From Clostridia bacterium (GTDB lineage Bacteria > Bacillota > DTU025): a stretch of 32,000 nt of DNA. The notes under the pieces were generated by a model. That model was not told where the DNA came from and made no database searches. It was given only the letters and a program-made list of their open reading frames with translations. This document shows positions 8,798-24,204 of the stretch, piece after piece. The first letter of the stretch is position 1; each line of letters begins with the position of its first letter. The DNA is taken from positions 1 to 32,000 of the forward strand of contig JAYFQW010000081.1 of NCBI GenBank assembly GCA_034926675.1. Direction: 5' to 3'. The translations under genes and the position numbers were made by a program.

Positions 8798-10975
8798 GTG
8801 AAACGTGCGATTGCAGTTGTCATGTGCCTGCTGGTGGCCGTTTGCGCAATTGCGGTTTCCTTGCGCATGAACTTGCGTGGCATTACATCGCGGGCCATAG
8901 AGCACGCCATCTCCCGCGCCACCGGCGTGGAGGATGTGGGCGTTGGGGCAGTGGAACCTCGAGGGTTCCGCTCGCTTCGGATATCCAACGTTAGGATCGG
9001 CGATGCGATTTCCATCAGTGAGCTGACTATCACATACGATCTCCGGGGTCTTCTTCGCGACAAGGTGAACCCAGGGCGGAGCATCACCGCGATGGAGGCG
9101 GGCCGAGTGCGGCTCGACTGGCCGGAAATGCAGCTCCTTGCCTCCGGCGACGGCGGTGGCGGTCGCGCCAGGCTCAATGGCCTCCGCAGCGATAGAGGCG
9201 CGTCCCGCGCAGCCCAGTCAGGCAGTGCCTTTGGTGGTTTCCGGGGGACCATATCCGTGAGGGACGCTGAAGTGAAGCTAGCTGGCGGGGCCAACCCAAC
9301 ACTGCTTCTCGCCACGGAGGTCCGGGCGGCCTTGGGGCAGCCGTTGGCGCTGTCGCCTGGGTCCTCTCCAGACCGGACCGCAGATGCGTTCCCCGGTTCT
9401 TCCTGGAACGTTTCGGCAGAGCGTGTGGAGTACGCTGCCGAGACCCCATTTGTGGTCGGGCGCCCCCAGGCCGTAGTATCGATAACGCCAAGCGGAAAGG
9501 TGCAGGTATCGGGGCTTGGGGCAGAACTCCTTGGGGGCAGAGTGGAGAGGGCGTCGGCACTTCTAGACCCAGCGGGCGCCCGGTTTCTGACGAGCGCAGG
9601 AGCGGTGCTGTCGCGAATCTCATATCGGGGGGTCGCATTCACGGGCGACGTTGAGATTCGAGAAGACGGATCTGCGGTCACTCACGCTATCGTCGATCTT
9701 CCGCAGGATCTAGGAGGCCCTGCCCACGTGGATGCGAGCTTCGTCGGGCGTGTAGCCTTAGGCCTCGATGCTGCTGTTCCAGGAGTGGCGAAGACCGATC
9801 CTCTGCGGCTTTCGGCAAAGGGCGACCTTCATCTTAATGCTGTCCGCACTCAATGGGGAGAGTGGCATGATCTGAAAGCATCCGTTGAAATCATGGCCTC
9901 AATGTCCGGAATTAGGGTTGACGCCGGCGCCAAGAGGACGTCGCTTTCGGACCTCGCCGCGGGCGGCGGGGCATCAGGCGTGGTATCTGGCTGGGTAAAC
10001 TGGAGCGCAGGTGTTGATGTCCGAAATGGCTGTGCTCAAGCGAATGTGGACATCACGGACGGCCTCGTGAAGACGCCCCTGTGGTCTCAGGAGTTCCAGG
10101 ATATCGCTGGGCGCATAGAGATTGCCAACACCGACGCGCGGCGTTCGCCAGGGGAGAGGGACGTTGCAGGTGCGGACCTGATGCACGGCATTGGCGCCGT
10201 CGTTCACGTGCCGAGCCTCAGGGGGACTATCGGCGGAGGCCAGGCGGAGGTCGCAGGGGCGCCAGGAGCCTGGAGAATCATCTTGAGCGGGGCGCGACTC
10301 GAGCATCAGCTGCTGAGGGGCCAGGTGAATGCAGACCTCTTAGTGCAGGGCGGCGCCTCAGACGGCCTTATCCTGTCGGGCGACATACATCTGAGCCATG
10401 CAGAGGTGGATGCCGTAACGGCTGGGTTCTCCCAGGTTCCATCATTGCCTGATGCCGTTCTCGATTTGGATCTGCAGTTTGGCGATGACGTGAAGATAGT
10501 GAGGGATGGATCCTGGGCTATCATGGCCCCAGGATCCATTAAGCTCGGCGGATCGGTGCGAAACCCCAAACCAGAGGGCGTTCTCATCGCAAGCGGCGGC
10601 GCGGTGGAGTTGTCAGGTGTTCCGCTTGAGATCGTCTCGGGGCGCATCGACTTTCCGGGCAAGGCAGGAGGGACGCTCCAGTTCGGGCTGGAGGCGCGCG
10701 ATATGTCTGCAGAACCCCCGATCGTCGCAAGCATCACAGGTGAACCGGGCAAGGTCAGCATTTCCATGAGGTCTGACGCGGCAGAAGAAACTGACCAAGG
10801 AGGACTCCTCATGAAACTTCTCGACGCTCGTTTGCGTCTATACATGTTGAGCGGCATTGGGAGGCTCCTGGATGAGAGCGTGGATTCGTCCGCAACAGTG
10901 TCCTCATCCCGGACCCGCACTGAGAAGGAATCGGTGTGGGGGAGTAGAATAGGGAATCCGACCATTAGCCCATGA
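8798..10975 (+). CDS. tamB: TamB/AsmA-like translocation and assembly module protein (DUF490-type C-terminus)
   Basis: N-terminal anchor: VKRAIAVVMCLLVAVCAIAVSL. The body is long and predicted beta-rich. C-terminal region is typical of TamB: LSGDIHLSHAEVD...LDLDLQFGDDVKIVRDGSWAIMAPGSIKLGGSVRNPKPEGVLIASGGAVELSGVPLEIVSGRIDFPG. Its stop overlaps the bamA ORF start (ATGA at 10972-10975). The track ORF start at 8249 overlaps the epimerase gene and is rejected. GTG 8798 is preceded by GGTGA. Confidence 0.75.
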   Translation: MKRAIAVVMCLLVAVCAIAVSLRMNLRGITSRAIEHAISRATGVEDVGVGAVEPRGFRSLRISNVRIGDAISISELTITYDLRGLLRDKVNPGRSITAMEAGRVRLDWPEMQLLASGDGGGGRARLNGLRSDRGASRAAQSGSAFGGFRGTISVRDAEVKLAGGANPTLLLATEVRAALGQPLALSPGSSPDRTADAFPGSSWNVSAERVEYAAETPFVVGRPQAVVSITPSGKVQVSGLGAELLGGRVERASALLDPAGARFLTSAGAVLSRISYRGVAFTGDVEIREDGSAVTHAIVDLPQDLGGPAHVDASFVGRVALGLDAAVPGVAKTDPLRLSAKGDLHLNAVRTQWGEWHDLKASVEIMASMSGIRVDAGAKRTSLSDLAAGGGASGVVSGWVNWSAGVDVRNGCAQANVDITDGLVKTPLWSQEFQDIAGRIEIANTDARRSPGERDVAGADLMHGIGAVVHVPSLRGTIGGGQAEVAGAPGAWRIILSGARLEHQLLRGQVNADLLVQGGASDGLILSGDIHLSHAEVDAVTAGFSQVPSLPDAVLDLDLQFGDDVKIVRDGSWAIMAPGSIKLGGSVRNPKPEGVLIASGGAVELSGVPLEIVSGRIDFPGKAGGTLQFGLEARDMSAEPPIVASITGEPGKVSISMRSDAAEETDQGGLLMKLLDARLRLYMLSGIGRLLDESVDSSATVSSSRTRTEKESVWGSRIGNPTISP

Positions 10976-12765
10976 TCACAGCCAGAGGGTGCTGTGGATA
11001 TGGAAGTTGTCGCATGATGTGGGAGGGGAGACTGTTGAAGGACGTTCGCTTCAGTAGGTTCTGCGGTATTCTGGCGGTAATGGTTGCCGCGGTCCTGCTG
11101 GCTTCATCGGCAGCCTGGGCTGCCGAGCCGAAGTCGCTGGGTAAGGTAACCGCTATCGAAGTCCAGGGAAACCAAAGGATCGATTCGGACATAATCATCC
11201 GTGCAATGGCCATCAAGGTTGGCGATGAACTAACAGAGCAAGCAATCAACACTTCATTCGGAGCGATCGATGCTCTAGGATGGTTTGCCGACCTAGGAGC
11301 AAACACCGCCCCTTACTTGGGCGGAGTCAAACTGATCGTCATCGTTCAGGAGTTCCCGGTGATCAGCAAGGTTAGCATTAGCGGCAACAAACTGATCGGC
11401 TCCGATGTGCTCACGGCAGCGCTTGGCTCAAAGCCCAACGCCCAGCTCAATATGAACACGCTGAGGGTGGACCTTCAGGCTCTTGGAAAGATCTATCAGG
11501 ACAAGGGCTACTGGGTGAGCATTGAACCGTCCGTTCAGGAACAGGGCGTGCTCTCCCTCAATGTCTTCGAGTGGACAGTCGCCGATGTGCGGGTGTCCGG
11601 CAATGAGAAGACCAAGGCCTACGTGATTCAGCGGTCTATCCAGACGAAGTCAGGCGACTACGTCGACGTAAACAAGATAAACGACGATCGCCGCCGCGTG
11701 TACATGCTGGGGGCCTTCGAGGACGTGGAGGCGAAGGTGGAACCGGTCCCTGGCAAGTACGAGTATGCCATCAACTATGTGGTCAAGGAGCGGAAGACCG
11801 GCACTGCCAACATGGGAATAACCTACAGCTCTGCAACTGGCCTAACTGGCTATTTGCAGCTCGGCGACGAGAATTTCCTAGGCAATGCCCAGACCGTCAA
11901 CCTCAGGGCGGAATTCGGAGGCGGCCAGACGAACTACGAGATTGGCTTCCACGAACCCTGGGTCGGGAAGTCCGGGAAGACATCTGCGGGCTTCAACCTG
12001 TTCGCGAAGTCCGTGGAGAAGAAGTACACGCCCGCGGAGGATGTGGACGACGGAAACCCTGATACCCCCGCCCCAATCCAGTACAAGCAGCGAAAGACTG
12101 GCGGAGACGTCACCATTGGGAGGTCTCTGTCTCTCAATACCACTGCATCTCTCAAGCTGAGAATAGAGAATGCTGTCAATACTGCTGTGAACCCTGAGGA
12201 TCAGCTTCTGACGCCGGCGGGCGGCAACACCCGGTCCCTCACCCTATCAGCGCAGAACGATACGAGGGATGATCTGTGGAACCCAGCCGCGGGTCACAGG
12301 GTCACGGGGTCTGTCGAGTATGCCGGAGGCCTGCTCGGGGGAGATGCTTCATTCTCCAAAGTCGAGGCTGAGGGCTCGATTTATCGCCAGGTCCGCGAGG
12401 GGCACATCCTCGCAGGCCGCGTCAGTGGCGGTTTCGGGCTTGCAGCCCTTCCAGAGGATCAGCAGTTCAAACTGGGAGGGGCCGAGACAGTTCGCGGGTA
12501 CAACTACGGGGATTTCCAGGGCGACAGAATGGCCCTGGCGAACGCGGAGTACAGGTTCAGCATCGTGAAGGGATTCCAGGGCGTGGTGTTCGTCGATGCG
12601 GGGCAGGCATGGAAGATCGGTGAGCCATTCCAGCTTTCCAACACCAAGATGGGGTATGGAGTGGGCGTCCGGGTGATGGTGCCTGTGCTCGGCATGATCC
12701 GAGTTGATTACGGAATCGGAAAGAATGGCGGACAGGCCTACTTCAGTTTCGGTCAGACGTTCTAG
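10972..12765 (+). CDS. bamA: Outer membrane protein assembly factor BamA (Omp85 family; POTRA repeats plus 16-strand-type barrel)
   Basis: POTRA-like repeats: VTAIEVQGNQRIDSDIIIRAMAIKVGDEL; ISKVSISGNKLIGSDVLTAALGSKPNAQLN...LQALGKIYQDKGYW; VADVRVSGNEKTKAYVIQRSIQTKSGDYV. Omp85 barrel end: VRGYNYGDFQGDRMALANAEYRF...GVVFVDAGQAW...GYGVGVRVMVPVLGMIRVDYGIG...YFSFGQTF. The true start may be TTG 11035 (GGGAGGGGAG upstream), giving the signal peptide KDVRFSRFCGILAVMVAAVLLASSAAWA|AEP. Confidence 0.92.
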   Translation: MITARGCCGYGSCRMMWEGRLLKDVRFSRFCGILAVMVAAVLLASSAAWAAEPKSLGKVTAIEVQGNQRIDSDIIIRAMAIKVGDELTEQAINTSFGAIDALGWFADLGANTAPYLGGVKLIVIVQEFPVISKVSISGNKLIGSDVLTAALGSKPNAQLNMNTLRVDLQALGKIYQDKGYWVSIEPSVQEQGVLSLNVFEWTVADVRVSGNEKTKAYVIQRSIQTKSGDYVDVNKINDDRRRVYMLGAFEDVEAKVEPVPGKYEYAINYVVKERKTGTANMGITYSSATGLTGYLQLGDENFLGNAQTVNLRAEFGGGQTNYEIGFHEPWVGKSGKTSAGFNLFAKSVEKKYTPAEDVDDGNPDTPAPIQYKQRKTGGDVTIGRSLSLNTTASLKLRIENAVNTAVNPEDQLLTPAGGNTRSLTLSAQNDTRDDLWNPAAGHRVTGSVEYAGGLLGGDASFSKVEAEGSIYRQVREGHILAGRVSGGFGLAALPEDQQFKLGGAETVRGYNYGDFQGDRMALANAEYRFSIVKGFQGVVFVDAGQAWKIGEPFQLSNTKMGYGVGVRVMVPVLGMIRVDYGIGKNGGQAYFSFGQTF

Positions 12766-12783
12766 CCCTGCGGACGCAGTGGA

Positions 12784-12819
12784 TGTATAATGGGTAGGCG
12801 CCGCGACGCCGTGGCGCCT
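12784..12819 (+). promoter_or_regulatory. Possible extended -10 promoter (TGTATAAT, 12784-12791) followed by a 7-bp GC hairpin (12796-12819) in the bamA-skp spacer
   Basis: TGnTATAAT match at 12784-12791 with no good -35. Hairpin is AGGCGCC-N10-GGCGCCT. It could be a promoter plus leader structure, or a weak bamA terminator. Sequence alone cannot decide. Confidence 0.3.
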
Positions 12820-12856
12820 GCCTTGCTTGTGATGAATTGGAGCTCAGAAAGAAAGG

Positions 12857-13321
12857 ATGAACCGAATGTTCAAGAACCTTCCGAAGACCCTTGTTACTAT
12901 GCTCATCTGCTCAGTTGTCATCGGCGCAGGCGCCGGTCTCATGAACTTGGCAGTCTCCTCGGCCGCTCCTGAGCCGGTCGTGATCGGAAAGATAGATGGC
13001 CCCAAGCTGAACAGCGAGTTTCCCGCACTGAAGGCAGCCTGGGACAACATCTCCAAGCAGAAGGCTACACTGGAGAAGGAACTGAACTCCAAGGCCGAGA
13101 ATCAAGACGAGGAGACCCAGAAGGTTCTCCTCGACCAGTACAACAAGAAGTACAACGACTATGCCAAGACGCAGCTTGAGCCGGCTACCAAGTCCCTCAA
13201 GGATGCCATTGCGGCTGTTGCTAAGGAGAAGGGCGTCAACGTCGTCCTCGACCTCAACGTTGTGCATCTCGGTGGAATCGACATTACCGACGCCGTGATG
13301 AAGAAGGGCGGCGCCAAGTAG
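12857..13321 (+). CDS. skp: Periplasmic chaperone Skp/OmpH family
   Basis: ~150 aa with a signal peptide (LVTMLICSVVIGAGAGLMNLAVSSA). K/E/Q-rich helical arms (ALKAAWDNISKQKATLEKELNSKAENQDEETQKVLLDQYNKKYNDY) and an OmpH-type C-terminus (IAAVAKEKGVNVVLD). Position directly after bamA is the classical synteny. Confidence 0.8.
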   Translation: MNRMFKNLPKTLVTMLICSVVIGAGAGLMNLAVSSAAPEPVVIGKIDGPKLNSEFPALKAAWDNISKQKATLEKELNSKAENQDEETQKVLLDQYNKKYNDYAKTQLEPATKSLKDAIAAVAKEKGVNVVLDLNVVHLGGIDITDAVMKKGGAK

Positions 13322-13407: not shown

Positions 13408-14241
13408 ATGAGTACTAGTAGGATGATCTCCGCGATGTTCACCGCCATCTTCGCATTGATGCTGCTCCAGGGGAATGGGGAAGTGTCAGCGTGCGTCGGA
13501 GCGCGTCCGATGGCCCTGGGAGGGGCATTTGTGGCCATGGCGGAGGGCTCATCCGCAGTGTACTGGAACCCCGCGGGCCTTGCCTGGCTTAAGTCGGGGG
13601 ATGCAGGGCTTACTGCCACCCTCAACAACAAGTGCACCTACAACTACGACCTCTTCGTTTCTCTCTGCTCACCTCTGGCTCAGGGGTGGGGTGTGGGCTT
13701 GGGCTATGTCCTCTCCACAGTCGCTGCCGGCGCCGGTGTTCTCCGAGAGGATTGGGCAGTAGCGTCGGCTGCCCGGGCCATCGACGATCAACTCGCCATC
13801 GGCGGCAGCGTGAGAATGGAGGCAGTGTCCTTTGAGCCGGAGTCCCCATCCACGAGGCTGAGGTTCGATATCGGCGTCATGTACCGGCTTACTCCGAAGC
13901 TCAGCGCCGGGCTGCTCATCCAGGATCTATCAGCAGGTTCGTCGGCCGCCAATATCAGACCGGGCCTCGCTATCAGGCCAGATGACCGTAGCCTTCTTAC
14001 CATTGATGTTTACGATATGGTCGGGGCATGGGGGCGCCCGAGCGGAAGGGCCGGATTCGAGAGACTGGTAGGGGATAATCTCGCTCTGCGCCTGGGGTGC
14101 TACGGGTTCAGCCCAGGATTCTCCTGGGGCGCACTGACCCTCGGCGCCGGCCTGACAGCCGGGCCATTTCGTGCTGATTACGCATTCCTCGGCGGAGCCC
14201 TGGGCGGCACTCACCAGTTGGGGGTGGAAGTTGCGTTCTAG
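13408..14241 (+). CDS. Small outer-membrane beta-barrel protein with a FadL/PorV-type N-terminal motif
   Basis: Signal peptide: MISAMFTAIFALMLLQGNGEVSA|C. The motif GARPMALGGAFVAMAEGSSAVYWNPAGLA resembles the G-x-A...NPA(G/A)L hatch motif of FadL/TodX/PorV-like barrels. Amphipathic strands alternate throughout, and the C-terminal beta-signal ends in Phe (HQLGVEVAF). SD GGGGGTGG precedes the ATG. Confidence 0.6.
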   Translation: MSTSRMISAMFTAIFALMLLQGNGEVSACVGARPMALGGAFVAMAEGSSAVYWNPAGLAWLKSGDAGLTATLNNKCTYNYDLFVSLCSPLAQGWGVGLGYVLSTVAAGAGVLREDWAVASAARAIDDQLAIGGSVRMEAVSFEPESPSTRLRFDIGVMYRLTPKLSAGLLIQDLSAGSSAANIRPGLAIRPDDRSLLTIDVYDMVGAWGRPSGRAGFERLVGDNLALRLGCYGFSPGFSWGALTLGAGLTAGPFRADYAFLGGALGGTHQLGVEVAF

Positions 14242-14256
14242 CGAGGTGTCAACTGG

Positions 14257-17200
14257 ATGAGGATTCTCGACCGTTACGTCATCCGCGAGTTTGTAGGGCC
14301 GTTCATCCTGTCTGTTTCGGCGTTCATAATCATCATGCTAAGCGGCCAGCTCTTCTGGCTGATGGATCTGATCATCCAGACACACGTCCCTGCGCTCGCG
14401 GTGATGCGCATGCTCTTATACAGTCTGCCTGGGATAGTCGCTCAGGTCCTGCCAGTTGCTGTGCTCCTGGCGGTCATGTTGGGCCTGGGTCGCCTCAGCC
14501 GCGATTCGGAGCTCTCGATCATGCGCGCCATCGGAACCCCTTTCGCGAGGATTGTGCTGCCGCTGATTGCCGTTGGCGCTGTTGTGAGTGGAATCGGCTT
14601 CTGGCTAGGGGATTCCGTAGTGCCATGGGCGACTCATGAATCGGAGAACATCGTTAGGCAGATGATCCTGAAGGACGTCATGCCCAATGTGGAACAGGAC
14701 GTCTTTTTCAAGGCGCCGGAGGGCAGGTTCGTCTATGTTGGCAAGGCTGATCCCGCGAGCGGGCTCATGGAACGTGTGATGGTGTATGAAACCAACTCCG
14801 GCGAATTCCCTCGGATAGTGACAGCCATGTCAGGTCGCATATCCGGGCTTTCCTGGCTGCTTACTGACGGCGCCATCCACCAACTGGATTCACGAGGGCG
14901 CGTCAGCATGTCAATGTCCTTCGAGAGCTTGGATATCAAGATGGACAACACGTTCGACCAGTTTGTTGCGAACCAGAAGACTCCTCAGGAGATGAGCAGG
15001 CGAGAGCTTAAGCAGAACATCGACCTGTTCGAACGGAGTGGCATCAAAGTCTCCGGGCTGCGGATCGATTACCACCTGAAATCGGCAGAGCCCGTGGCGG
15101 CCTTGGTGTTCGCTATTATCGGGGCGCCGCTCATTACCAAATCTCCTCGGCGAGGCGGCGGCTACTTCGGAGTGGTGGCAGCGGCTGTGCTGGCGCTTGC
15201 GTACTATGTGGTGCAGGCCATCGCCAGATCGCTGGCATCCCAAGGGACGGTCCCTCCACTTCTGGCCGCATGGTTCCCTAACATCCTGTTCCTGGCAGCA
15301 GGCCTCGCCATGCTATTTTCAGTTGATAAGGTGCGCGGCTTCCGTGCGCGGCGGCGCATTCCGATGGCTGCTATCCTCCTCGGTGCGCTGCTTCTTGTCG
15401 CCATTGCGCCTTCGGCTGCGAGGGCGGCGGATTTCCCAATCGACGTGCGCGGGACCTTGCTGTCGTTCGATGGCGCCACAGGGATCTGGGTAATCTCGGG
15501 GCAAGTGAAGATATCATTCAAAGACACGAAGATAACCGGGGATAGCGCGGAGTTCGATCTAAAGGACAACATTGCGGTGATACGCGGCAACGTTGTGGTA
15601 ATCCGGAACGATGAGGAACTCCGAGGCGATACTGTGACCTACAACGTCTCCACCGGGGACGTAATTGCAGGCAACGCGTGGGCAAAGATCCGCGATGAGA
15701 AGGTCACCGGTTTCCTTTACATGAAAGGCGCGGAGTTGGAGAGGAAGGACAGCTACGTTCGCCTCTCTGACGGCGCCGTAACCACGTGTGATCTTGACAA
15801 CCCCCACTATAAGGTGGTCGCCGAGAGAATGGAGATCTACGTAGACAGCAGAATCGTCCTACATGGAGTGGCCTATTACGAAGGGAAGGTCAAACTCCTG
15901 TCGCTTCCCCACCTTACTATTCCGCTCAAAGAGGATGAGAGGTTCGAGCTTCCGAAAATCGGGTACGGAGCTGCGGAAGGCTGGTACATCAAGACCAAGT
16001 TCAACTACAGGATCAATGATGATGCCACGGGGTCTCTGTATGCCGACTACTATCAGCTGCTAGGGCCTGCGGCTGGCGTCAGTCAGAGGATCAACCTTGG
16101 CAAGATAGGCGAGTTCACAGGGTATCTCTACGGGCTCTGGAACATCAACTCGGACCGGCTCGACACCACAGTCGAGCTGACCCACGCCGTGTCGCTCCCA
16201 TTCGATGTATCCTCGAAGGCGGAGCTGAAATTCAGGGATTTCACAACGTCAGCCGGGTTGCCTGCCCTGGAGAGGACCTATGGACTCAGTTTGCACAGGC
16301 AAGCATCTGGGTCGGCAACTGCGTTGACCTGGAACACCACCCAGCTCGAGTCGGTATCGGATACCTCAAACACTACTCTGATCCTCAAGCACAGCTCCAC
16401 GTTGCCGCAGCCGCTCTCTGTCAGGCTCAACGCCGACGCTTCATTCAGGCGCCAGACTGCGGGGGATTCTGTGGTGCGCAATGTGCTCAACTACAGAGTG
16501 CAGGCGGATAGGGCATTCGGGCCGATTACCGTGACGGGCCTGGCCCAATCCCAAGTTGTGATCGACGATGACTCAAGCCAGGATGGCTCGAACGCGCCAC
16601 CGCCTCCGTGGAAGGCGCTACAGAGGCTTCCCGAAATCACGGTGAAGGCGGATCGGCTGGAGATTCCAAATACTCCGCTGAGAATGGGCGTAAAGATGGT
16701 CTATGGGCGGTACACTGAGGACGCGATAAGAAATGGAGTCAGATCGGATATTACGGCTGGAAAAGGAGAGGCCGAGCTAACTCTCGGAATGGACTCGCGC
16801 AAGCTCACTCAGGGCCTCAGCGTGGATGCGACTGCCAGAGGAGTGTTCAGCCTCTATGAGGGGTACGGAGCACGAGGAGCTGCAGGCTACACCATCGGCG
16901 CCTACGTTGCCCCGGTGCAAGGATCTACACTGAGGATAACGTACAACAAGACCGATGTGATCGGAGCGTCTCCGTTCATGTTCGATCGAATGGCGGAGAC
17001 GAGCAGGCTTGCTGCGAATCTTACCGCCGTGAAGGGTCCGCTCAGGCTCACCCTCTCCAGCGGTTACGACTTTCGGACCCACACCTACGATAGCCTCACA
17101 GCCGCTGCCAGGGTGGATCTGGGTGGTGGGATAGCGGCGGACCTGTCGGGGTCGTACAGCATCTCCACGGGGAAGCCCACATCTCTTGTTGGAAGGGTAG

Positions 17201-17535
17201 TGGTGCAGCCCAATCCGGATCTGGATTTCAAGGCCGCTGCGAGCTACAGTTTCATCACGGGGAAGCTTGCAAGGGTGGAATCCTCTGCGAACATGAAACT
17301 CAGCTCCGACTACCGGCTTGCTTGGGCAGCGGTGTATGATGTGGCCAAGGGCGGCCTGATCAGGGGAGATATCGGAGTGACCCGCGATCTGCACTGCAGG
17401 GAGATTTCGCTGCTGTACGAATACACATCCCGCAGAGTGTGGTTGGACTTCCGGATCAAGGCATTTCCAGGGCAATCCCTAGGTTTCGGGCTAGGAGAGG
17501 ATGGCGTGATCCTGAGCCAGCCCAGCCTGTTCTGA
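14257..17535 (+). CDS. lptG-lptD: Single ORF encoding a complete LptF/LptG-family LPS export permease (aa 1-~358) followed in frame by a complete LptD/OstA outer-membrane LPS translocon (aa ~359-1092)
   Basis: N-terminal part: MRILDRYVIREFVGPFILSVSAFIIIMLSGQLF, six TM segments with a periplasmic insert, ending AAWFPNILFLAAGLAMLFSVDK. Then a signal-peptide-like segment: VRGFRARRRIPMAAILLGALLLVAIAPSAARA|ADF. Then an OstA N-domain (KITGDSAEFDLKDNIAVIRGNVVVIRNDEELRGDTVTY), the LptD signature region (AVTTCDLDNPHYKVVAERMEIYVDSRIVLHGVAYYEGKVKLLSLPHLTIPL), and a large barrel ending SQPSLF. There is no in-frame stop between the two parts. Confidence 0.85.
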   Translation: MRILDRYVIREFVGPFILSVSAFIIIMLSGQLFWLMDLIIQTHVPALAVMRMLLYSLPGIVAQVLPVAVLLAVMLGLGRLSRDSELSIMRAIGTPFARIVLPLIAVGAVVSGIGFWLGDSVVPWATHESENIVRQMILKDVMPNVEQDVFFKAPEGRFVYVGKADPASGLMERVMVYETNSGEFPRIVTAMSGRISGLSWLLTDGAIHQLDSRGRVSMSMSFESLDIKMDNTFDQFVANQKTPQEMSRRELKQNIDLFERSGIKVSGLRIDYHLKSAEPVAALVFAIIGAPLITKSPRRGGGYFGVVAAAVLALAYYVVQAIARSLASQGTVPPLLAAWFPNILFLAAGLAMLFSVDKVRGFRARRRIPMAAILLGALLLVAIAPSAARAADFPIDVRGTLLSFDGATGIWVISGQVKISFKDTKITGDSAEFDLKDNIAVIRGNVVVIRNDEELRGDTVTYNVSTGDVIAGNAWAKIRDEKVTGFLYMKGAELERKDSYVRLSDGAVTTCDLDNPHYKVVAERMEIYVDSRIVLHGVAYYEGKVKLLSLPHLTIPLKEDERFELPKIGYGAAEGWYIKTKFNYRINDDATGSLYADYYQLLGPAAGVSQRINLGKIGEFTGYLYGLWNINSDRLDTTVELTHAVSLPFDVSSKAELKFRDFTTSAGLPALERTYGLSLHRQASGSATALTWNTTQLESVSDTSNTTLILKHSSTLPQPLSVRLNADASFRRQTAGDSVVRNVLNYRVQADRAFGPITVTGLAQSQVVIDDDSSQDGSNAPPPPWKALQRLPEITVKADRLEIPNTPLRMGVKMVYGRYTEDAIRNGVRSDITAGKGEAELTLGMDSRKLTQGLSVDATARGVFSLYEGYGARGAAGYTIGAYVAPVQGSTLRITYNKTDVIGASPFMFDRMAETSRLAANLTAVKGPLRLTLSSGYDFRTHTYDSLTAAARVDLGGGIAADLSGSYSISTGKPTSLVGRVVVQPNPDLDFKAAASYSFITGKLARVESSANMKLSSDYRLAWAAVYDVAKGGLIRGDIGVTRDLHCREISLLYEYTSRRVWLDFRIKAFPGQSLGFGLGEDGVILSQPSLF

Positions 17536-17559: not shown

Positions 17560-18237
17560 GTGAGCTTGAAGCTGGCCCGAACTGCAGCAGTCCTGGCGGC
17601 GGTCGCCATTGCCTGCGTGTATGTGTATGCGTTCGTGGTTCACAGGCCTTCACCCGCTCGTGATGGGCCAGATGTGAGCCAAGGCTTGATACGACCTGAC
17701 CTGGTCTTCAAGGGTGTTCAGGTTGAGGGCAGAGAGGCCGGCGAGCGGATCTGGACCTTGTCGGCAGCCAGGGTGGAGGCAGGTGCGCGGGGATCTCAGA
17801 CCAGGCTTGACGAAATCACTGAGGGCGAGCTATATCGGACGGGCGAGGCCCATTACGCTTTCAGTGCGGGCCGGGGTGTTCTGGACTCCTCTACTGGGAT
17901 GCTGAGCCTCATGGGTGGAGTCAAGGTGGGCAGCGGCGGACGCGACCTGCTTGAGGCTGATGAGGTGAGATGGGACCCTGCTAGATCCATGGTGATAGTG
18001 CCCGGCCCGGCGAGACTTCACACAGCCAATGGCGAGGCCGCCGCCTCCTCCCTTGAGATTGATGTCAGGTCCTCCGAGATACTCACACAGGGCGAGGTGC
18101 ATGTCGACGAGGGGAACTCGGGGCCGGGATCGGGAGTGACCATCAAGAGCGCCAAAATGCGTATCAACCCGGACACCGGGTCGGTAGAGGCAGAGGGCGC
18201 GACGGAGATCACATTCCGGGTGAGTTCTGATGAGTAG
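17560..18237 (+). CDS. lptC: LptC-like membrane-anchored LPS export protein
   Basis: GTG start after GGAGAAGGAGG. Single N-terminal TM: LARTAAVLAAVAIACVYVYAFVV. This is followed by ~180 aa of beta-jellyroll-like sequence with the A...G..v.l.g.V pattern of LptC/OstA folds. It lies between lptD and lptA. The call rests largely on context and architecture. Confidence 0.6.
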   Translation: MSLKLARTAAVLAAVAIACVYVYAFVVHRPSPARDGPDVSQGLIRPDLVFKGVQVEGREAGERIWTLSAARVEAGARGSQTRLDEITEGELYRTGEAHYAFSAGRGVLDSSTGMLSLMGGVKVGSGGRDLLEADEVRWDPARSMVIVPGPARLHTANGEAAASSLEIDVRSSEILTQGEVHVDEGNSGPGSGVTIKSAKMRINPDTGSVEAEGATEITFRVSSDE

Positions 18238-18265
18238 AACTGGGATGAGAGGAGAGGCGAGCGAG

Positions 18266-18943
18266 ATGGCATGGCGCAGACTCGGGGGATTTCTGATGAT
18301 GGCGCTGCTCTGTGTGGTGGCGTCACTTCCCGCTGCTGCAGCTAACAAGGATGTCATAGTGCGGCTGGGGGACAGTGGGAGAACGACCTACCAGGGGGCA
18401 AATGGAGACACTGTGCTGGAGGGCGGTGTAAAGATCGAGTACGGCGACACTGTGATCACCGCCCAGCGAGCAGTTGTTAACATGGGAGCAGGTAAGGCGC
18501 ATCTCACAGGCGGCGTTACGCTGGTGCAGGGCGATGTCACACTCGGCTCCGACGCCATGGATGCTGACCTTAAGAAAGAGACCGCTGTGCTGACTGGAAA
18601 CGTGAAGCTTCAGAAGAAGGAGCAGCAGGCCGAGAAGGACTCATCCGGGAAGGCCAAGGTGTCGACGATCGTGATGACCTGTGCGTATCTGGACATCTCC
18701 ACTATCACTCAGGATTTCACTGCCACCGGGCCCGTGAGCATAACCGTGGATAAGCAGAAGGCGCAGTCTGCGAAGGCGACCTATTCCAACGCCCAGAAGG
18801 TCCTCGTGTTGACTGGTTCTGTGTTTATTCAGGGTGGAGACGGCGAGACCATCAAGTGTGATAAAGCCAGCCTACACACTGACAAAGAGGCAATTGAGGC
18901 CGAAGGCAAGGGAATGGAGATCACATTCGTGATCAAGGACTAG
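18266..18943 (+). CDS. lptA: LptA (periplasmic OstA-like LPS transport protein)
   Basis: Signal peptide: MAWRRLGGFLMMALLCVVASLPAAAA. OstA_N-type repeats: VLEGGVKIEYGDTVITAQRAVVNMGAGKAHLTGGVTLVQGDVTLGSDAMDADLKKETAVLTGNVKL and AQSAKATYSNAQKVLVLTGSVFIQGGDGETIKCDKASLHTDKEAIEAEG. The track ORF begins at 18230; I prefer ATG 18266 with GAGAGGAGAGG upstream. Confidence 0.75.
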   Translation: MAWRRLGGFLMMALLCVVASLPAAAANKDVIVRLGDSGRTTYQGANGDTVLEGGVKIEYGDTVITAQRAVVNMGAGKAHLTGGVTLVQGDVTLGSDAMDADLKKETAVLTGNVKLQKKEQQAEKDSSGKAKVSTIVMTCAYLDISTITQDFTATGPVSITVDKQKAQSAKATYSNAQKVLVLTGSVFIQGGDGETIKCDKASLHTDKEAIEAEGKGMEITFVIKD

Positions 18944-19011: not shown

Positions 19012-19036
19012 CTCCGTGAATAGGGGGTTTAGCTGC

Positions 19037-21253
19037 ATGTTCGCCCTTTTGCGCGATGGGTTCGTCCGAGACGTGATCGCCGCAGTCCTTGTGACGATCA
19101 TTGTCGGGTCCGGCGCAGTGCTTGCTGTATCGAACGGCGCAGACCGGTTCTTCGGCCGCGCAGTCTCGGGCGTCCTCGGCGAAGATGGGGAGTACGACAT
19201 GGTTGTCCATGTAAGGGCCGAGGTCCGGCGTGAGGCTGCCCGCGCAATTGAATCTGACATCCCCCGGGAACTGCCGGGAGCGCGGGTGAAAGAGGGTGTG
19301 ACAGTCCTGTCGCGCTCGAATTTTCTTGTGGCGCTGCCGGAAAAGAATGCCGAATCATTTGATCGGCTCGTCCGCGTCGCAGCGGAAATCCCGGGATACG
19401 TTGGGTACACAGTAGTGATGGAGCCGAAGATCACAGTGAGCGGAGTGGGGCCTGGGGTGGCTCCCTTGATCACTCCTGAGCTTGAGAAGATCGATGGGGT
19501 CCTGTTCACTGTGCAAGCAGGCGGCGAGATCCATCTTGTGTGCGATTCGCCCGAGTCGGCTCAGTCGGCTGGCCGGACAGCGGAGGCGCTCCTCAGCAGG
19601 CGACAAGTGGTCGACATCAGAATGGCCCCGGGGAGCGAGGCGCTCCTCCCGGGCAGTCCAGCCCGGAGTGGACTTCTGGATGGGATCAGGCGCGGCGCGT
19701 CCAGTGGCGCGTCCAGTGGAACACATCACGGACTGTCAGATGCGGAGGTGCACGACGTCACGCCCGATGCAGCCATAGACGACTCGTCCAGATTAGCATC
19801 TACTCTTCAGAAGATGCGGGGGTTCCTGGAAACGTGGGGCCCAAAGGCAACTGAGTTCTCATCATCTCTTGACGAGGCAGAACAACTGCTTTCTGACTTC
19901 CACAGGGCGGTGCAGGGTGCACTGGTTGCAGCCGAGAGCTCTGAGAAGGCGCTGGCCGAGTATGAGAAGGCCCTGGATTCCCTGATCAGCCTGCAGCGTG
20001 CACTTGAAAGGATCGGTGTCGGCGAGCCCAGTCCGCTCCGGATCGACCCGGAGGCCATTGATTCACTTGTGGAACTGACCGACAAGGCCATTGCGGAGAT
20101 CGCGAGGCTACGCGAGACTGCGGAGGCAGTATCCCTGTTCACCACGAGGTACGATCCTCTGATGGGCAACCTGAAGCTGTGGGAGGGCAGGCTCGATTCC
20201 TTCGCGCGGAAGCTCGAGTTGATCCGCTCTGCGGCAAATGGCGCCGGAGGAGTGGCGGCCGTCCTGAACGACATGTCGACGGCTGCATCTGGGATTCTCA
20301 GGACATTGCAGGAGCTTGATGCAACGGGCCTTCGGCATAAGGTGGAGGCGGCGCGAGAAGACCTCTCTGTGGCCTCTGCGGTGGACGTAGAATCGATAGC
20401 CGCGAAGGTGAGAGAGATGAGAGACTCCATCCCAAAGCTATCTCCCGATGAAGCTGATGGCTCGATTCAGCTCATAGATAAGCTAGTGGAGGAGCAGCGG
20501 GAATTTGTTGGCAGGCTTCAGATTCTTGTGATCTCGGACGTCTCATCGAAGGAATTGACCAAGCTCTCCCGGCTTGCGGCGGGCCCATCGGCGGCAGCAT
20601 CCTATGCGTTGCCAGCAGGGGTAGTTCAGCCGGGAGTGAGATCCGAAGTCCGAACGCTCCTAGGCTCAGTGAGGAGCACAGTGGCTGGAATGACAGCTCT
20701 GGGAATCACCATTATGTCCCTGGTGTTCGACCACGCGGCGATCATATCCACGGCTGCGCACATGGGAGACCGACGGCGCGGGAGGCCGGCGCCGGGAGTG
20801 GCGGGCTGTCTGTACGGCGCCACGATCGGCGGCGTGACCCTGTGGGCCATCTCATTCATCGCCGGCGCTTCCGTAGCATCCCTGGGGCGACCTGCTCTTG
20901 CCGTTGTCGGAATGGCGACCGGTGCGACGGTGGCGATGATGGCGATGCGCGTATCCCCGGTGAACGCGGACGAGATCGAGGCCTGCGCAGCACTGGGCAT
21001 GAACCCCTCCGCGATTCTGCGCGAGGTAATCCTCCCAGCAGGCAAGCCGGGCGTTATCTCCCTTCTGAACAGGTCGCAGCTGGTATTCGCAGGATCCTTC
21101 CCCGACGGATTTGTGCAGAGTATAGGCGGCGTGGACGATGAGGGAGCAGTGGATCAAACTGGATGGGAGGTGGACACTGATGCTCAGCATGCGCCGACTG
21201 ACGCGCTCCTTCGGCCATCGGATAGCGCTCGCAAGCTTCAGCATGGATGTTGA
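19037..21253 (+). CDS. Uncharacterised polytopic membrane protein: N-terminal TM, two small alpha/beta domains, ~250-aa coiled-coil/helical region, C-terminal 3-TM module with an EAA-like loop; putative permease partner of the downstream ABC ATPase
   Basis: TM1: VIAAVLVTIIVGSGAVLAV. FtsX-ECD-like blocks: YDMVVHVRAEVRREAARAIESDIPRELPGARV and EIHLVCDSPESAQSAGRTAEALLS. Helical region ~19778-20540: EKALAEYEKALDSLISLQRALERI...LELIRSAANG...IQLIDKLVEEQREFVGRLQ. TM segments: TVAGMTALGITIMSLVF, VAGCLYGATIGGVTLWAISFIAG, ALAVVGMATGATVAMMAM. Then ADEIEACAALGMNPSAILREVILPAGKPGVISLL resembles the EAA-x3-G-x9-I-x-LP loop of type I ABC importer permeases. I recognise no family for the whole protein. Confidence 0.5.
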   Translation: MFALLRDGFVRDVIAAVLVTIIVGSGAVLAVSNGADRFFGRAVSGVLGEDGEYDMVVHVRAEVRREAARAIESDIPRELPGARVKEGVTVLSRSNFLVALPEKNAESFDRLVRVAAEIPGYVGYTVVMEPKITVSGVGPGVAPLITPELEKIDGVLFTVQAGGEIHLVCDSPESAQSAGRTAEALLSRRQVVDIRMAPGSEALLPGSPARSGLLDGIRRGASSGASSGTHHGLSDAEVHDVTPDAAIDDSSRLASTLQKMRGFLETWGPKATEFSSSLDEAEQLLSDFHRAVQGALVAAESSEKALAEYEKALDSLISLQRALERIGVGEPSPLRIDPEAIDSLVELTDKAIAEIARLRETAEAVSLFTTRYDPLMGNLKLWEGRLDSFARKLELIRSAANGAGGVAAVLNDMSTAASGILRTLQELDATGLRHKVEAAREDLSVASAVDVESIAAKVREMRDSIPKLSPDEADGSIQLIDKLVEEQREFVGRLQILVISDVSSKELTKLSRLAAGPSAAASYALPAGVVQPGVRSEVRTLLGSVRSTVAGMTALGITIMSLVFDHAAIISTAAHMGDRRRGRPAPGVAGCLYGATIGGVTLWAISFIAGASVASLGRPALAVVGMATGATVAMMAMRVSPVNADEIEACAALGMNPSAILREVILPAGKPGVISLLNRSQLVFAGSFPDGFVQSIGGVDDEGAVDQTGWEVDTDAQHAPTDALLRPSDSARKLQHGC

Positions 21254-21920
21254 AGAAGGTCAGACAGCTGTGATCATGGGGCCATCAGGCTGTGGGAAAT
21301 CCACGGTTCTCAGGAGCATCATCGCGCTTTCACGACCGGACTCAGGCGAGATACTGTGGCAGGGCAATTCGGTGCTGGATATGTCAGAGTCGGAACTCCG
21401 CCAGTTCCGGAGAAAGACCGGGTTCGTGTTTCAGCGGTCCAACCTCATAGGCAGGCTGAATGTGCTTCAGAACGTGATGCTTCCCGCCGTGATGGCTGGG
21501 ACCGGCATAGATGTGGCCCAATCATGGGCGATCGCGGCTCTGGAAGGAGTGGGTATGGAAGACCGCTCGTCAGCAAAGGTGACCGAGCTGTCAGGCGGAG
21601 AAATGCAGCGGGTGGCCATAGCCCGCGCGATTTCAGGCCGACCCAGATTGGTGCTGTGGGATGAACCCACTGCCTCTCTTGATCCCATCCTGGTAGTTGA
21701 CACGCTGAAGCTTATCGAGGGGCTGATAGATCGCCTGGAGGTGACCATGGTGGTAGTTACGCACGAAGTCAGCTTCGCTCGCCGAGTTGCCGACAGGGTC
21801 ATCTTGATGGAGCACGGCGCCGTAGTGGAGGAGGGTCCGCCCGACAAGGTTCTGGTGTCGCCCGAATCCCGACTTGGTGCGAGGTACGCTGGCTGCCTAT
21901 CTTACCTCGAGGGGCAATAG
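21180..21920 (+). CDS. ABC transporter ATP-binding protein (HisP/GlnQ-like subfamily)
   Basis: Walker A GPSGCGKST, Q-loop FVFQRSNL, signature LSGGEMQRVAIARA, Walker B LVLWDEPTASLDP, H-loop VVVTHEVSFARRVADRVILMEHGAVVEEGPPDKV. I prefer ATG 21180 (GGGAGGTGG 7 nt upstream) over the track start 21138. Either start overlaps the 3' end of the upstream ORF. Confidence 0.9.
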   Translation: MLSMRRLTRSFGHRIALASFSMDVEEGQTAVIMGPSGCGKSTVLRSIIALSRPDSGEILWQGNSVLDMSESELRQFRRKTGFVFQRSNLIGRLNVLQNVMLPAVMAGTGIDVAQSWAIAALEGVGMEDRSSAKVTELSGGEMQRVAIARAISGRPRLVLWDEPTASLDPILVVDTLKLIEGLIDRLEVTMVVVTHEVSFARRVADRVILMEHGAVVEEGPPDKVLVSPESRLGARYAGCLSYLEGQ

Positions 21921-21980: not shown

Positions 21981-23255
21981 GTGGATATGATCTTGGTGGC
22001 AGGCGGACCCGGAGATACGCTGGGACTCGCCAGGCCTGCAGTGGAGATGGTGCGTAGAGCCTATCCTGCGGCTGATGTGTGGGTTTTCGTTGCGCCCGTC
22101 TCACGCGCCACCGGGCGAGAGGCACGGGTCGCATCGTCGTTTCCGGGGGTGAGGCGTGCTGTGCCGCCTTCGGAGTTCGTGAGATATCTCGCCACTGGAA
22201 TCCGGCCACCGGGTTTCGCGGCATCTGGGTCAGGAGTCGTAGTTCACCTCGGAGGCGGCATGACTTGGGCCGCCTGCCTGAGCAGGCGACTTCACTATCC
22301 GTTGGTTACATATTGCTCAAAGGCGATCCCTCCAGCTAGATCCGTAGCTCTGTATCTAGTTGAGGATGAACGGGCACAGGCCTCTCTCATCGCGAGTGGG
22401 GCTCCTGCTGAAAAGGTGCGGCCCGTTGGCAACCTCACTGCAGACAGCGCGGCGTTGAGTGTAAGCCGGAATGAGGCCAGAGCCCGGTTGGGAATTGGCG
22501 AGGACGATCGCCTCGTCGGGCTATATCCTGGGCTTCGGCCATCAGAGGTTTCCGCTATGGCGCCCTTCCTCTTCAGGACTGCAGAGCTCCTCTCCAGGGT
22601 TGAGCGGGGTGTGAAGTTCATCATGCCCCTCTCCCCTTTCGTGGGCACATCATCTCTGGAGCGGCTTTTTGCCATTCCGCGGGGCAAATCCAGGCCTGAG
22701 AGATCCTCTGCAGTGGTAGAGAAGAATGCTGGCCCCATTGAGGCCGTAACATCAGAGGGAATCAGGGTGCGCATCGAGACATCCGCGCGGCAGGAAACCA
22801 CAATTGCCTCGGATCTGGCCATCTGCACACCAGGTCCCATCTGCACTGAACTCGCAGCCAACGGTGTCGCCTATGTCGCGGTTATCCCCTCCAATCTTCC
22901 TCACGCTATGACACTCGGTGGGCTTGGGGGCCTTCTGTCGTCAGTCCCTCTCATCGGCGACGCCATTAGGAGCAGCGCGTACAAGCATGCCGCTGCTTCG
23001 TCGAAGTTCTTCACCATTCCGAACATCAAGGCCGGACGCATGGTGACTCCGGAGGTGGCCGGGGAGATAGGGCCCGAAGACGTAGCGATACCCTCTGTTG
23101 GGCTTCTCGGCGATCCTGCGCGTCGCGACAAGATCGGCCGCGAGCTGAGGGAGGCCGTGGGCGGCCCTGGCGCCTCTGGCAGATTCGCCAATCAGATTCA
23201 TCTCATCACTGGTCCGAGCTCACCGGCCAGTCTAGCTGGCCCAGGCCAGGGCTAG
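21981..23255 (+). CDS. lpxB: Lipid-A-disaccharide synthase LpxB (GT19), divergent
   Basis: By-eye alignment to E. coli LpxB. [11 protein letters not shown] matches [35 protein letters not shown] matches [53 protein letters not shown] matches [41 protein letters not shown] matches the C-terminal region. The PGSR motif is changed to PGLR. Confidence 0.65.
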   Translation: [424 protein letters not shown]

Positions 23256-23484
23256 GCCGCATATATCCAACCCCATCCCGCTTACAAGACTCATCCCAGG
23301 AAACCCCGGGCATGTTCCAGGCCTGCTTGTGCAGGTGAGACCTGTTCATCTGTCGAAAGAGATCATAACATGGCCGGATTGCGCGCTCCACGAGGGAACC
23401 AAACTGCACCTATTAGCGTCATTACATGGGGCGAATGGCGATATCTGCACGGAGCAGGTCACAGCCGGTGGGAGTGTTCGGCAT

Positions 23485-24204
23485 TTGGGCATTCGCGGTG
23501 ATCAGCTGGTCAAGGCGTATGGCCGTCGCCGGGTCGTCGACGGCGCCAGTATAGCGCTTGAGCGCGGTGAGGTCGTCGGCCTCCTCGGACCGAACGGCGC
23601 TGGCAAGACCACTACCTTCTACATGATAGTCGGCCTTGAGTCGCCTGATTCCGGTTCTGTTGCAATCGATGGGGTAGATGTGACCGACTGCCCTGTCTGG
23701 AGGCGAGCGAGGCTCGGATTGGGCTATCTCGCGCAGGAACCGTCGGTGTTTCGCGGGCTCTCGGTGGAGAGCAATCTTCGAGCAGTTCTCCAGTTGGCGG
23801 GGGTTGCTCGAACTCAGGAAAGCGCAGATTTGGAGCGCCTGCTCTCCAACTTCGATCTGGCGAGGATACGGCGGCAGACTGGCTTGACCCTCTCGGGCGG
23901 AGAGAGAAGACGGGTGGAGATCGCGCGGGCGCTGGCCGCGTCTCCGTCATACATCCTTCTCGATGAGCCATTCACTGGCATTGATCCGATAGCAGTCGGA
24001 GAAATCCAGGAGATTGTAGGTAGGCTCAAACGCGCGGGCTTGGGTGTGCTGATCACCGACCACAACGTCCGCGACACGCTGGCCATAGTGGATCGTGCTT
24101 ACATAATGCACGAGGGCCGGATACTTGTTTCGGGATCTGCACGCGAAATCCTCAACGATCCGACTGCGAGACGGCTCTATCTGGGCGAACGGTTCACGCT
24201 TTAG
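23485..24204 (+). CDS. lptB: LPS export ABC transporter ATP-binding protein LptB
   Basis: Near-canonical LptB: LVKAYGRRRVVDGASIALERGEVVGLLGPNGAGKTTTFYMIVGL, LGLGYLAQEPSVFRGLSVESNL, LSGGERRRVEIARALAASPSYILLDEPFTGIDPIAVGEIQEIV, GVLITDHNVRDTLAIVDRAYIMHEGRILVSGSAREILNDPTARRLYLGERFTL. TTG 23485 gives 239 aa, close to the ~241 aa I recall for E. coli LptB. The track ORF start 23329 adds a non-homologous extension. Confidence 0.92.
   Translation: MGIRGDQLVKAYGRRRVVDGASIALERGEVVGLLGPNGAGKTTTFYMIVGLESPDSGSVAIDGVDVTDCPVWRRARLGLGYLAQEPSVFRGLSVESNLRAVLQLAGVARTQESADLERLLSNFDLARIRRQTGLTLSGGERRRVEIARALAASPSYILLDEPFTGIDPIAVGEIQEIVGRLKRAGLGVLITDHNVRDTLAIVDRAYIMHEGRILVSGSAREILNDPTARRLYLGERFTL

Follow-up and report, generated by a model that had tools for sequence, protein, structure and literature searches.

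An uninterrupted reading frame joins an LptF/G-type permease to an LptD-fold barrel through a signal-peptide-like segment in a Bacillota lineage

Can one gene encode both the inner-membrane permease and the outer-membrane translocon of a lipopolysaccharide (LPS) transport system, and does its product stay in one piece? The question is raised by a stretch of 32,000 nucleotides from a Clostridia bacterium (Bacillota, GTDB lineage DTU025; assembly GCA_034926675.1, contig JAYFQW010000081.1, positions 1 to 32,000 of the forward strand), which is called the window below. A single uninterrupted open reading frame (ORF) of 1,092 codons plus a stop codon, with an ATG start and no in-frame stop, occupies positions 14257 to 17535 of the forward strand. 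A first-pass annotation had read it as a complete LptF/G permease that runs without a stop into LptD, and the ORF listing, Pfam searches, and AlphaFold2 modeling followed by Foldseek agree with that description. Like the Lpt system of Escherichia coli (LptB2FGC, LptA, and LptDE), the window encodes the permease and LptD folds together with accessory LptB, LptC, and LptA genes. Unlike in E. coli, where LptF, LptG, and LptD are three polypeptides and LptE serves as a plug, one LptF/G is fused to LptD in the window and no LptE was seen. The sequence comparisons and the structural model suggest that the lptF/G-lptD gene probably encodes a polyprotein processed by signal peptidase I, in which an internal signal would export the LptD part and cleavage would release LptD to the outer membrane.

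The N-terminal part is a permease of the LptF/G type. PF03739 (LptF_LptG) matches aa 6 to 353 over model positions 1 to 351 of 353, with an E value of 2.9e-95 and 319.7 bits against a cut-off of 27.9 (Pfam). Profile matches to LptF and LptG structures in the PDB have E values of 1e-20 to 1e-10, and in the Foldseek search against the PDB LptG and LptF rank after LptD, with 6mit_G reaching an E value of 3.5e-17 and a TM-score on target of 0.68. Hydropathy analysis assigns six transmembrane (TM) segments to the permease and reveals a seventh hydrophobic stretch at aa 370 to 386. The NCBIfam equivalog models for LptG (TIGR04408, 219 bits against 240) and LptF (TIGR04407, 211 bits against 230) both score just below their cut-offs, and with such near-equal scores the permease part is not assignable specifically to either; this is as expected for the single undifferentiated LptF/G of diderm Firmicutes. 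A single LptF/G, proposed to form a homodimer, and the lack of LptE have already been reported for these bacteria (PMC13018214, PMC5007114, PMC10665443), and LptE is described as normally absent from diderm Firmicutes and from Terrabacteria (PMC13018214, PMC10665443). In the window, tblastn with the LptF/G part found no second LptF/G paralogue and a lipobox scan revealed no convincing LptE-like lipoprotein, in line with the first-pass annotation on both counts.

The C-terminal part consists of an OstA-type jellyroll and a large barrel. PF03968 (LptD_N) matches aa 425 to 544 with an E value of 5e-7 (30.4 bits against a cut-off of 20.4), and the jellyroll matches the LptD structure 8h1r_A at aa 395 to 531 with an E value of 2.4e-6 (PDB profile search). 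In the barrel, the sole Pfam match is DUF3769 (aa 879 to 942; E value, 1.8e-6); the Pfam LptD model PF04453 gives no match, and the NCBIfam LptD equivalog NF002997 reaches 19 bits against a cut-off of 683. Sequence similarity to bona fide PF04453 LptD proteins is weak but significant (protein P0062; E value, 7.7e-11). The barrel, missed by the PDB profile search, PF04453, and the NCBIfam equivalog, was recognized only through structure prediction and Foldseek. The AlphaFold2 model of the ORF, built on a 36-sequence alignment, has a mean predicted local distance difference test score (pLDDT) of 83.9 and a predicted template modeling score (pTM) of 0.53. Its barrel region contains 31 strand elements at aa 567 to 1067 by DSSP, mostly with a pLDDT above 85, in comparison with 26 strands in solved LptD barrels. 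The 15 best Foldseek matches in the PDB are all full-length LptD proteins (E values, 6e-29 to 1e-21; approximately 800 aligned columns), led by 5iv9_A (6e-29) and 4q35_A (1.7e-28), with TM-scores of just 0.36 to 0.50. Since the TM-scores are modest and the strand number is inexact, the C-terminal part is best labeled, as far as the model goes, a translocon with the LptD fold whose sequence family is divergent (DUF3769-like). Two cysteines, C511 and C1047, are nearly invariant among homologues, and their positions are presumably comparable to those of the C173-C725 interdomain disulfide of E. coli LptD. The OstA N-domain, TTCDL region, and LptD barrel that had been read from the sequence after the junction were thus recovered, and the modeling of the full ORF that had been proposed as a check yields both the permease and the LptD fold, with an uninformative inter-domain arrangement.

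The two parts meet at a segment resembling a signal peptide. The junction reads ...GLAMLFSVDKVRGFRARRRIPMAAILLGALLLVAIAPSAARA followed directly by ADFPIDV..., as quoted in the first-pass annotation. The n-h-c order of a signal peptide is present after the predicted cytoplasmic end of the upstream membrane protein: the loop after TM6 carries six basic residues (K358-V-R-G-F-R-A-R-R-R367) and is followed by a hydrophobic core with a Kyte-Doolittle 12-mer mean of 3.10, by Pro385, and by ARA↓A, in which the arrow marks the predicted cleavage site. In the AlphaFold2 model, the core forms a helix of just 15 residues (aa 369 to 383), disorder follows at aa 382 to 391, and approximately 5 residues separate the predicted cleavage site from the first strand of a single jellyroll of approximately 165 aa. 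These features are conserved. All 28 fused proteins of one alignment (A3) have a net-positive loop after TM6 and a hydrophobic core (12-mer means, 2.2 to 3.45), and all 28 have a -3/-1 small-residue site 22 to 26 residues before the conserved G415, where the background frequency of such sites is 34 to 55% of random 5-residue windows in these proteins. A basic loop, a hydrophobic core, and a small-residue c-region are likewise kept in 24 further fused representatives from other phyla (52 of 52 in total), with c-regions such as PATVSG↓T, NFSAAA↓EE, PAPARA↓AG, PTIQA↓ET, FAGLA↓QE, and LFSA↓QL; the AxA-type site was formally scored on the 28 proteins of the alignment only. LptD orthologues encoded by separate genes in split relatives start with n-h-c signal peptides and AxA-type sites (e.g., ...AAASPEP, VFAQEK, and SFAQET) that align with the internal segment of the window protein. 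Because these orthologues carry N-terminal signal peptides at this position, the internal segment is, on the evidence of the alignment, derived from a true LptD signal peptide. The claim that LptD keeps a signal-peptide-like segment as a seventh hydrophobic segment therefore holds by both hydropathy and homology.

A trivial explanation of the fusion is an assembly or sequencing artefact, in which one more T in the run at 15316 to 15319 would put TGA-TAA in frame and yield separate, translationally coupled lptG and lptD genes. The T run and the off-frame TGA TAA (15324 to 15329) are present, and the four-T homopolymer adjoins the two stop codons; split arrangements occur in related lineages, and a nanopore-derived relative (locus L020) is visibly broken by frame changes. 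However, the TGATAA letters lie inside the codons GTT GAT AAG, which encode V356-D357-K358, and a pair of V or A followed by D or E is kept in the fused frame across fused homologues. The following K-V-R matches the C terminus of split LptF/G proteins codon for codon, and the proposed shift would delete it. Moreover, 17 independent genomes of the window's clade (L001 to L015, L017, and L019; 34 to 57% identity; GC content, 46 to 65%), produced by various projects and assemblers, have the same uninterrupted frame across both parts. That locus scan covered one genome per GTDB species with the frames checked directly, and 3 of the 17 fused loci run off a contig end. Full-length fused proteins of 1,079 to 1,124 aa, with 26 to 57% identity to the window ORF, make up 25 clusters (90% identity), and the members of fused clusters come from many independent NCBI, JGI, ENA, and Logan assemblies and contigs, where their annotation is "LptF/LptG family permease," "hypothetical protein," or, in one case, "LptD." A search of 5.8 billion proteins gave no exact match to the window protein, the best being 56 to 57% identical, and it is the comparison with homologues that argues against an artefact. 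The comparison with sister genomes that had been suggested as a test favors the fusion, since 17 of 17 clade genomes have a single ORF and V-D is read in the fused frame. On these grounds, the fusion is judged to be genuine and the frameshift is rejected as extremely improbable.

The broken relative itself (L020, 8001 to 11216 of contig CAWGMK010000010.1; P0024, 621 aa) is a fused-clade member lying in three frames on a 509-kb contig of a metagenome-assembled genome (MAG), which reflects either long-read indel errors or a pseudogene.

The split relatives indicate how the fusion may have arisen. Split LptF/G proteins end in ...SEKVR followed by a stop, and the window protein reads SVDKVR and then G361 where split genes have TAG, TAA, or TGA; in the codon alignment, AGC GAG AAG GTG CGG TAG of the split locus L022 stands against GTT GAT AAG GTG CGC GGC of the window. 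The arrangement of the split genes varies. In L016 and L036, lptD lies in the same frame as lptF/G with one stop codon between them (9078 to 9080 in both) and an ATG two or three codons later; in L022, L023, L025, L042, L043, and L045, lptD overlaps lptF/G and is read in another frame; and in L037 and the Atribacterota loci L027 to L031 and L033, a short intergenic gap separates them. The label "Limnochordia" was found on one split relative only (L037). In distance trees built separately for the LptF/G and LptD halves, by neighbor joining without support values, the window groups with the other fused loci in one clade, with the split loci as sister group and outgroups. Because the stop position aligns with G361 and a single fused clade appears in both half-trees, the comparisons point to one stop-codon loss in the window's lineage, followed by joint evolution of both halves. 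The distant fused proteins P0025, P0026, P0031, and P0035, which are the only distant ones in the tree, fall outside the main fused clade.

Several observations on these relatives stand beside this history. A single point mutation separates L016 and L036 from fusion; alternatively, their stop codon may be read through. Close homologues of the divergent LptD family occur in Atribacterota (L027 to L031, L033, and L038 to L040), and most Atribacterota loci in the scan have the same lptF/G-then-lptD order as separate genes, with LptA on the opposite strand. In the window, a gene for a 277-aa PorV/PorQ- or FadL-like outer-membrane protein lies between Skp and the fusion (13408 to 14241, forward strand; NF033709 E value, 3e-14, below the cut-off); homologues are found just upstream of lptF/G in the split loci L016, L022, L025, L036, and L042 and not in the other fused loci. 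Since this gene is placed as in the split clade and the K-V-R motif is retained, the comparison suggests a near-basal position of the window lineage in the fused clade.

A genuine fusion leaves the fate of its product to be decided. In the solved LptB2FG structures, the C termini of LptF and LptG are cytoplasmic. With the LptF/G C terminus on that side and a basic loop that obeys the positive-inside rule, the hydrophobic core should insert N-in/C-out and export what follows. In the proposed sequence of events, the Arg-rich loop after TM6 would stay cytoplasmic, the core of approximately 15 residues would insert as a seventh membrane segment, the LptD part would thread through Sec cotranslationally, and signal peptidase I would cut ARA↓A after aa 390. 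Cleavage would leave a seven-TM LptF/G in the inner membrane, with the signal peptide as its seventh TM segment, working with LptB and LptC. The freed LptD of approximately 700 residues would be inserted in the outer membrane by Skp and BamA, and its N-terminal jellyroll would accept LPS from the LptC-LptA bridge. One LptD would be made per LptF/G subunit. Topology, cleavage, final localization, and LPS as the substrate are inferred.

A mechanistic precedent for such a polyprotein is FbcH, the cytochrome b-c1 precursor of Bradyrhizobium japonicum, said to have been described by Thony-Meyer and colleagues in 1991, in which a polytopic inner-membrane protein and an exported protein are reportedly processed at a retained internal signal. 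FbcH belongs to an unrelated family, and both of its products reside at the inner membrane or its periplasmic face, in contrast to the outer membrane here.

Internal initiation would offer another route to two products, with LptD made mainly from GTG 15331 or ATG 15364 as a normal preprotein and the read-through fusion as a by-product. The window does have an in-frame GTG (V359) and ATG (M370) just before the hydrophobic core, in the region where split relatives start lptD. Neither codon is preceded by a Shine-Dalgarno-like motif, a start at M370 would give a signal peptide without a basic n-region, and the fused loci share no conserved start with a Shine-Dalgarno motif, L005 and L007 lacking any ATG, GTG, or TTG between TM6 and the core. 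There is accordingly only a slim chance that LptD is made in this way.

The reading that competes with processing more directly is an uncleaved transenvelope protein, in which TM7 is permanent, the LptD jellyroll lies beside the LptF/G jellyroll in the manner of LptC, and a barrel of the same chain sits in the outer membrane, so that the two membranes are tethered. The layout of a TM segment plus a jellyroll is that of LptC. A further precedent for a tether is the long MlaD of Veillonella parvula, a diderm-Firmicute protein proposed to span both membranes, its single chain combining an anchor in the inner membrane with a C-terminal barrel in the outer membrane (PMC10665443). Unlike the window protein, MlaD has a helical spacer of approximately 150 residues, lacks an internal cleavable-looking signal, and belongs to a different fold and system. 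The window protein has no spacer: one jellyroll follows approximately 5 residues after the AxA site. Fused proteins of the Bipolaricaulia type have a jellyroll region of about double length (214 to 270 aa from the core to the T-T-C motif), and the extra length could help in spanning the periplasm. LptC and LptA are conserved beside the fusion and would be redundant in a directly tethered machine; their retention implies a normal bridge that ends at the N-terminal edge of the LptD jellyroll, which an N-terminal tether would prevent. The AxA-type c-region, with its preceding Pro or Gly as a helix breaker, is kept in all scored proteins and visible in the others, although an uncleaved anchor would not need it, and the predicted helix is short for an anchor and gives way to a disordered c-region. 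A BamA-Skp pair just upstream of the fusion is available to fold a released barrel. For these reasons, of the two fates that the first-pass annotation had left open, cleavage is favored over a permanent anchor, and we regard the tethered protein as unlikely.

Certain points nevertheless count against processing. The evidence for cleavage is sequence and model inference for every member and uses the -3/-1 rule; Ala-rich stretches satisfy this rule easily, and the 28 proteins are phylogenetically related, so that 28 of 28 is suggestive and is not a probability. The fused frame in the window genome itself is supported by homologues, not by reads, and the AlphaFold2 arrangement of the domains is, as noted, uninformative. 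Besides the MlaD precedent, the only publication on this architecture draws one envelope-spanning polypeptide (PMC10160955).

That publication also bears on the novelty of the architecture. The first-pass annotation knew the permease and the translocon only as separate polypeptides, but the fused form has been seen before: Sexton et al. (2023, PNAS) described G4FGC1 of Thermotoga maritima as a "pABC permease" in which LptF/G, LptA, and LptD are fused (PMC10160955), and fused proteins are found in public databases. According to that paper, G4FGC1 is enriched in the toga, is conserved in all Thermotogae, and is drawn as an envelope-spanning lipid transporter of a host without LPS genes, for which other lipids were proposed as cargo (PMC10160955). 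Like G4FGC1, the window protein is a single ORF composed of LptF/G, an OstA/LptA-like jellyroll, and an LptD-like barrel. Unlike in the LPS-less Thermotoga, the window gene sits among genes for LptC, LptA, LptB, and an LpxB-like protein. A further difference lies in the interpretation: the paper depicts an uncleaved protein, and its accessible text contains neither an internal signal peptide nor processing (PMC10160955). A Thermotoga homologue, P0237, has a basic loop, a hydrophobic core, and ...LFSA↓Q after TM6 like the window protein, the orthology of P0237 and G4FGC1 being assumed. Toga enrichment of the Thermotoga protein would be equally expected from a released LptD part. The conserved internal signal and AxA site provide a testable alternative to the published envelope-spanning picture.

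To determine the distribution of the fusion, 1.84 billion cluster representatives were searched exhaustively with HMMER and a profile of the fused protein. At least 27 fused representatives (50%-identity clusters) longer than 1,000 aa were among the top 150, most of them with the best-matched stretch crossing the junction. The search also returned many stand-alone LptD-like proteins of 680 to 780 aa that match from profile position 370 to 400 or thereabouts, stand-alone LptF/G proteins, and LptF-LptG tandems, and a word-indexed homologue search with the LptD part alone gave few distant relatives. The window ORF and a protein from a Halanaerobiales MAG (P0109) align over their whole length (E value, 5e-131). 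Other named fused members are P0120 of "Candidatus Bipolaricaulia," those of Thermotogaceae/Thermotogota MAGs (P0177 cluster), and P0237 of Thermotoga sp. strain KOL6 (1,062 aa), whose BLASTP alignment covers residues 1 to 583 of the window ORF and so crosses the junction (27% identity; E value, 6e-59). If the protein is uncleaved, a covalent transenvelope LPS conduit, with TM7 and the LptD jellyroll in an LptC-like position, would be an ancestral one-chain Lpt bridge common to Thermotogota, Bipolaricaulia, Halanaerobiales, and this Bacillota clade, which we consider about as unlikely as the tether itself.

Some of the proteins recovered differ in layout. In six fused proteins of 1,134 to 1,188 aa (P0120 from a Bipolaricaulia MAG, P0123, P0125, P0127, P0134, and P0197), the core and the T-T-C motif lie 214 to 270 residues apart, compared with approximately 125 in window-type proteins, and the roughly doubled jellyroll region might replace LptA and/or LptC. 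The distant fused protein P0031 (L080, 6001 to 9186, GCA_041302435.1; 25% identity) is encoded outside any outer-membrane gene cluster, with a MiaB-like radical SAM gene and a CN-hydrolase gene as neighbors. P0027 to P0055 and many HMMER entries are tandem LptF-LptG (or LptG-LptF) fusions of approximately 770 to 840 aa, which are another way to fix stoichiometry in this transporter family. Three proteins of 1,030 to 1,175 aa (P0056, P0063, and P0064) combine LptA/LptD_N, LptC, OstA_2, and PF19838 domains and may be multi-jellyroll bridge proteins.

The literature search found no paper on the fusion in Limnochordia-like Bacillota or Halanaerobiales, nor on processing at an internal signal peptide. 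The architecture is known but barely studied, and what is new here is the lineage, the LPS context, and the comparative evidence for a stop-codon origin and for a conserved, probably cleaved internal signal peptide. Antunes et al. (2016) reported no clear LptD in Negativicutes or Halanaerobiales (PMC5007114), and Léonard et al. never found lptD in atypical diderms and used its absence in discussing whether the outer membrane had a single origin (PMC8871954). Because P0109 aligns end to end with the window fusion, at least some of the "missing" LptD sits inside the LptF/G ORF. An LptD-fold translocon can be present but hidden, either fused behind LptF/G under a permease annotation or as a stand-alone DUF3769-like protein, and the two forms explain at least part of the LptD absence reported for diderm Firmicutes and atypical diderms. 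If the polyprotein reading is true, the permease and the barrel would be made in a fixed ratio and a very large barrel precursor could reach Sec cotranslationally; if LptF/G is homodimeric, there would be two LptD molecules per transporter and possibly two bridges per machine.

The coordinates of the fused gene, its parts, and the accessory genes are listed in Table 1.

Table 1. Parts of the lptF/G-lptD fusion and associated envelope genes in the window
Feature	Position	Strand	Evidence
Entire fused ORF	14257..17535	+	Full-length homologues of 1,079 to 1,124 aa, 26 to 57% identity
LptF/G-type permease part, aa 1-358; periplasmic beta-jellyroll (aa ~149-228) placed between TM3 and TM4 of six TM helices	14257..15330	+	Pfam, NCBIfam, hydropathy, AlphaFold2, Foldseek, PDB profiles
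Basic loop VRGFRARRRIP, aa 359-369; five Arg (six basic residues counting K358); predicted cytoplasmic, equivalent to signal-peptide n-region	15331..15363	+	pLDDT <50 at aa 361-367
Codon G361 (GGC), homologous to the lptFG stop codon of split relatives	15337..15339	+	Codon alignment
Internal signal-peptide-like h and c regions MAAILLGALLLVAIAPSAARA, aa 370-390	15364..15426	+	Hydropathy, AlphaFold2, split orthologues
Predicted signal peptidase I site A388-R389-A390↓A391	15418..15429	+	-3/-1 rule
LptD N-terminal OstA-type beta-jellyroll, aa 391-556, including TTCDL with conserved C511 (15787-15789)	15427..15924	+	Pfam LptD_N, PDB profile, AlphaFold2 strands at aa 396-556
LptD-type C-terminal beta-barrel, aa 557-1092, including DLHCRE with conserved C1047 (17395-17397)	15925..17532	+	AlphaFold2, Foldseek, DUF3769
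BamA (10972-12765) and Skp/OmpH (12857-13321)	10972..13321	+	Pfam Omp85/POTRA and OmpH; syntenic upstream of the fusion in related loci
LptC, N-terminal TM helix and jellyroll	17560..18237	+	PF06835; TIGR04409, 46 bits against a cut-off of 38
LptA-like periplasmic jellyroll protein	18230..18943	+	PF03968, E value 3e-10
LptB ATPase	23329..24204	+	TIGR04406, 340.9 bits against a cut-off of 240

The locus is a diderm-Firmicute outer-membrane cluster. Upstream of the fusion lie genes for SpoIID, MreB, a SpoIVB-like peptidase, a TamB-like protein, BamA, Skp, and the PorV/FadL-like outer-membrane protein; downstream lie those for LptC, LptA, a 745-aa protein, an ABC ATPase, an LpxB-like protein, LptB, a DUF3084 protein, and a large SLH-domain protein. 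LptC directly follows the fusion in 11 of 11 fused loci, and LptA is present in 10 of 11, the remaining locus (L012) ending before that position. A single LptF/G, no LptE, and an outer-membrane cluster with BamA, Skp, and TamB are shared with Acetonema longum and Veillonella; unlike in the window, LptF/G and LptD are separate in A. longum, and its functional LptD is predicted to have 16 strands (PMC13018214).

These neighbors bear on the cargo, which might be something other than LPS, such as other lipids or lipoproteins, as has been proposed for the LPS-less Thermotoga and for the Borrelia LptD homologue; this alternative is independent of processing. Its basis is that the barrel matches DUF3769 and neither PF04453 nor the NCBIfam LptD equivalog, that T. 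maritima has the same architecture without LPS genes (PMC10160955), and that A. longum encodes another, distantly related LptD-like protein whose role is unclear (PMC13018214). The operon-like row with LptC, LptA, LptB, and the LpxB-like gene argues instead for LPS, the fusion is the only LptD-like gene in the window, and the link to P0062 connects the barrel with bona fide LptD. A cargo other than LPS thus appears rather improbable.

The other genes of the row are less readily assigned. The 745-aa ORF that follows LptA (19016 to 21253, forward strand) has no family apart from a weak BPD_transp_1 match at aa 623 to 684, and it overlaps by 116 nucleotides with the gene for a non-LptB ABC ATPase (21138 to 21920, forward strand). 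Since this pair is syntenic in fused and split relatives, at 28 to 50% identity, the 745-aa protein is probably the permease of a second, uncharacterized ABC system within the Lpt row. The 424-aa LpxB-like protein (21981 to 23255, forward strand) has a local LpxB match far below threshold (TIGR00215, 37.9 bits against 190) and is conserved in the fused clade at 42 to 58% identity; its sequence marks it as a divergent glycosyltransferase and not as a clear LpxB. After LptB, a DUF3084 coiled-coil protein (24233 to 25555, forward strand) and a 1,300-aa protein with an N-terminal SLH domain (25855 to 29757, forward strand) are encoded, and both may be envelope-tethering components.

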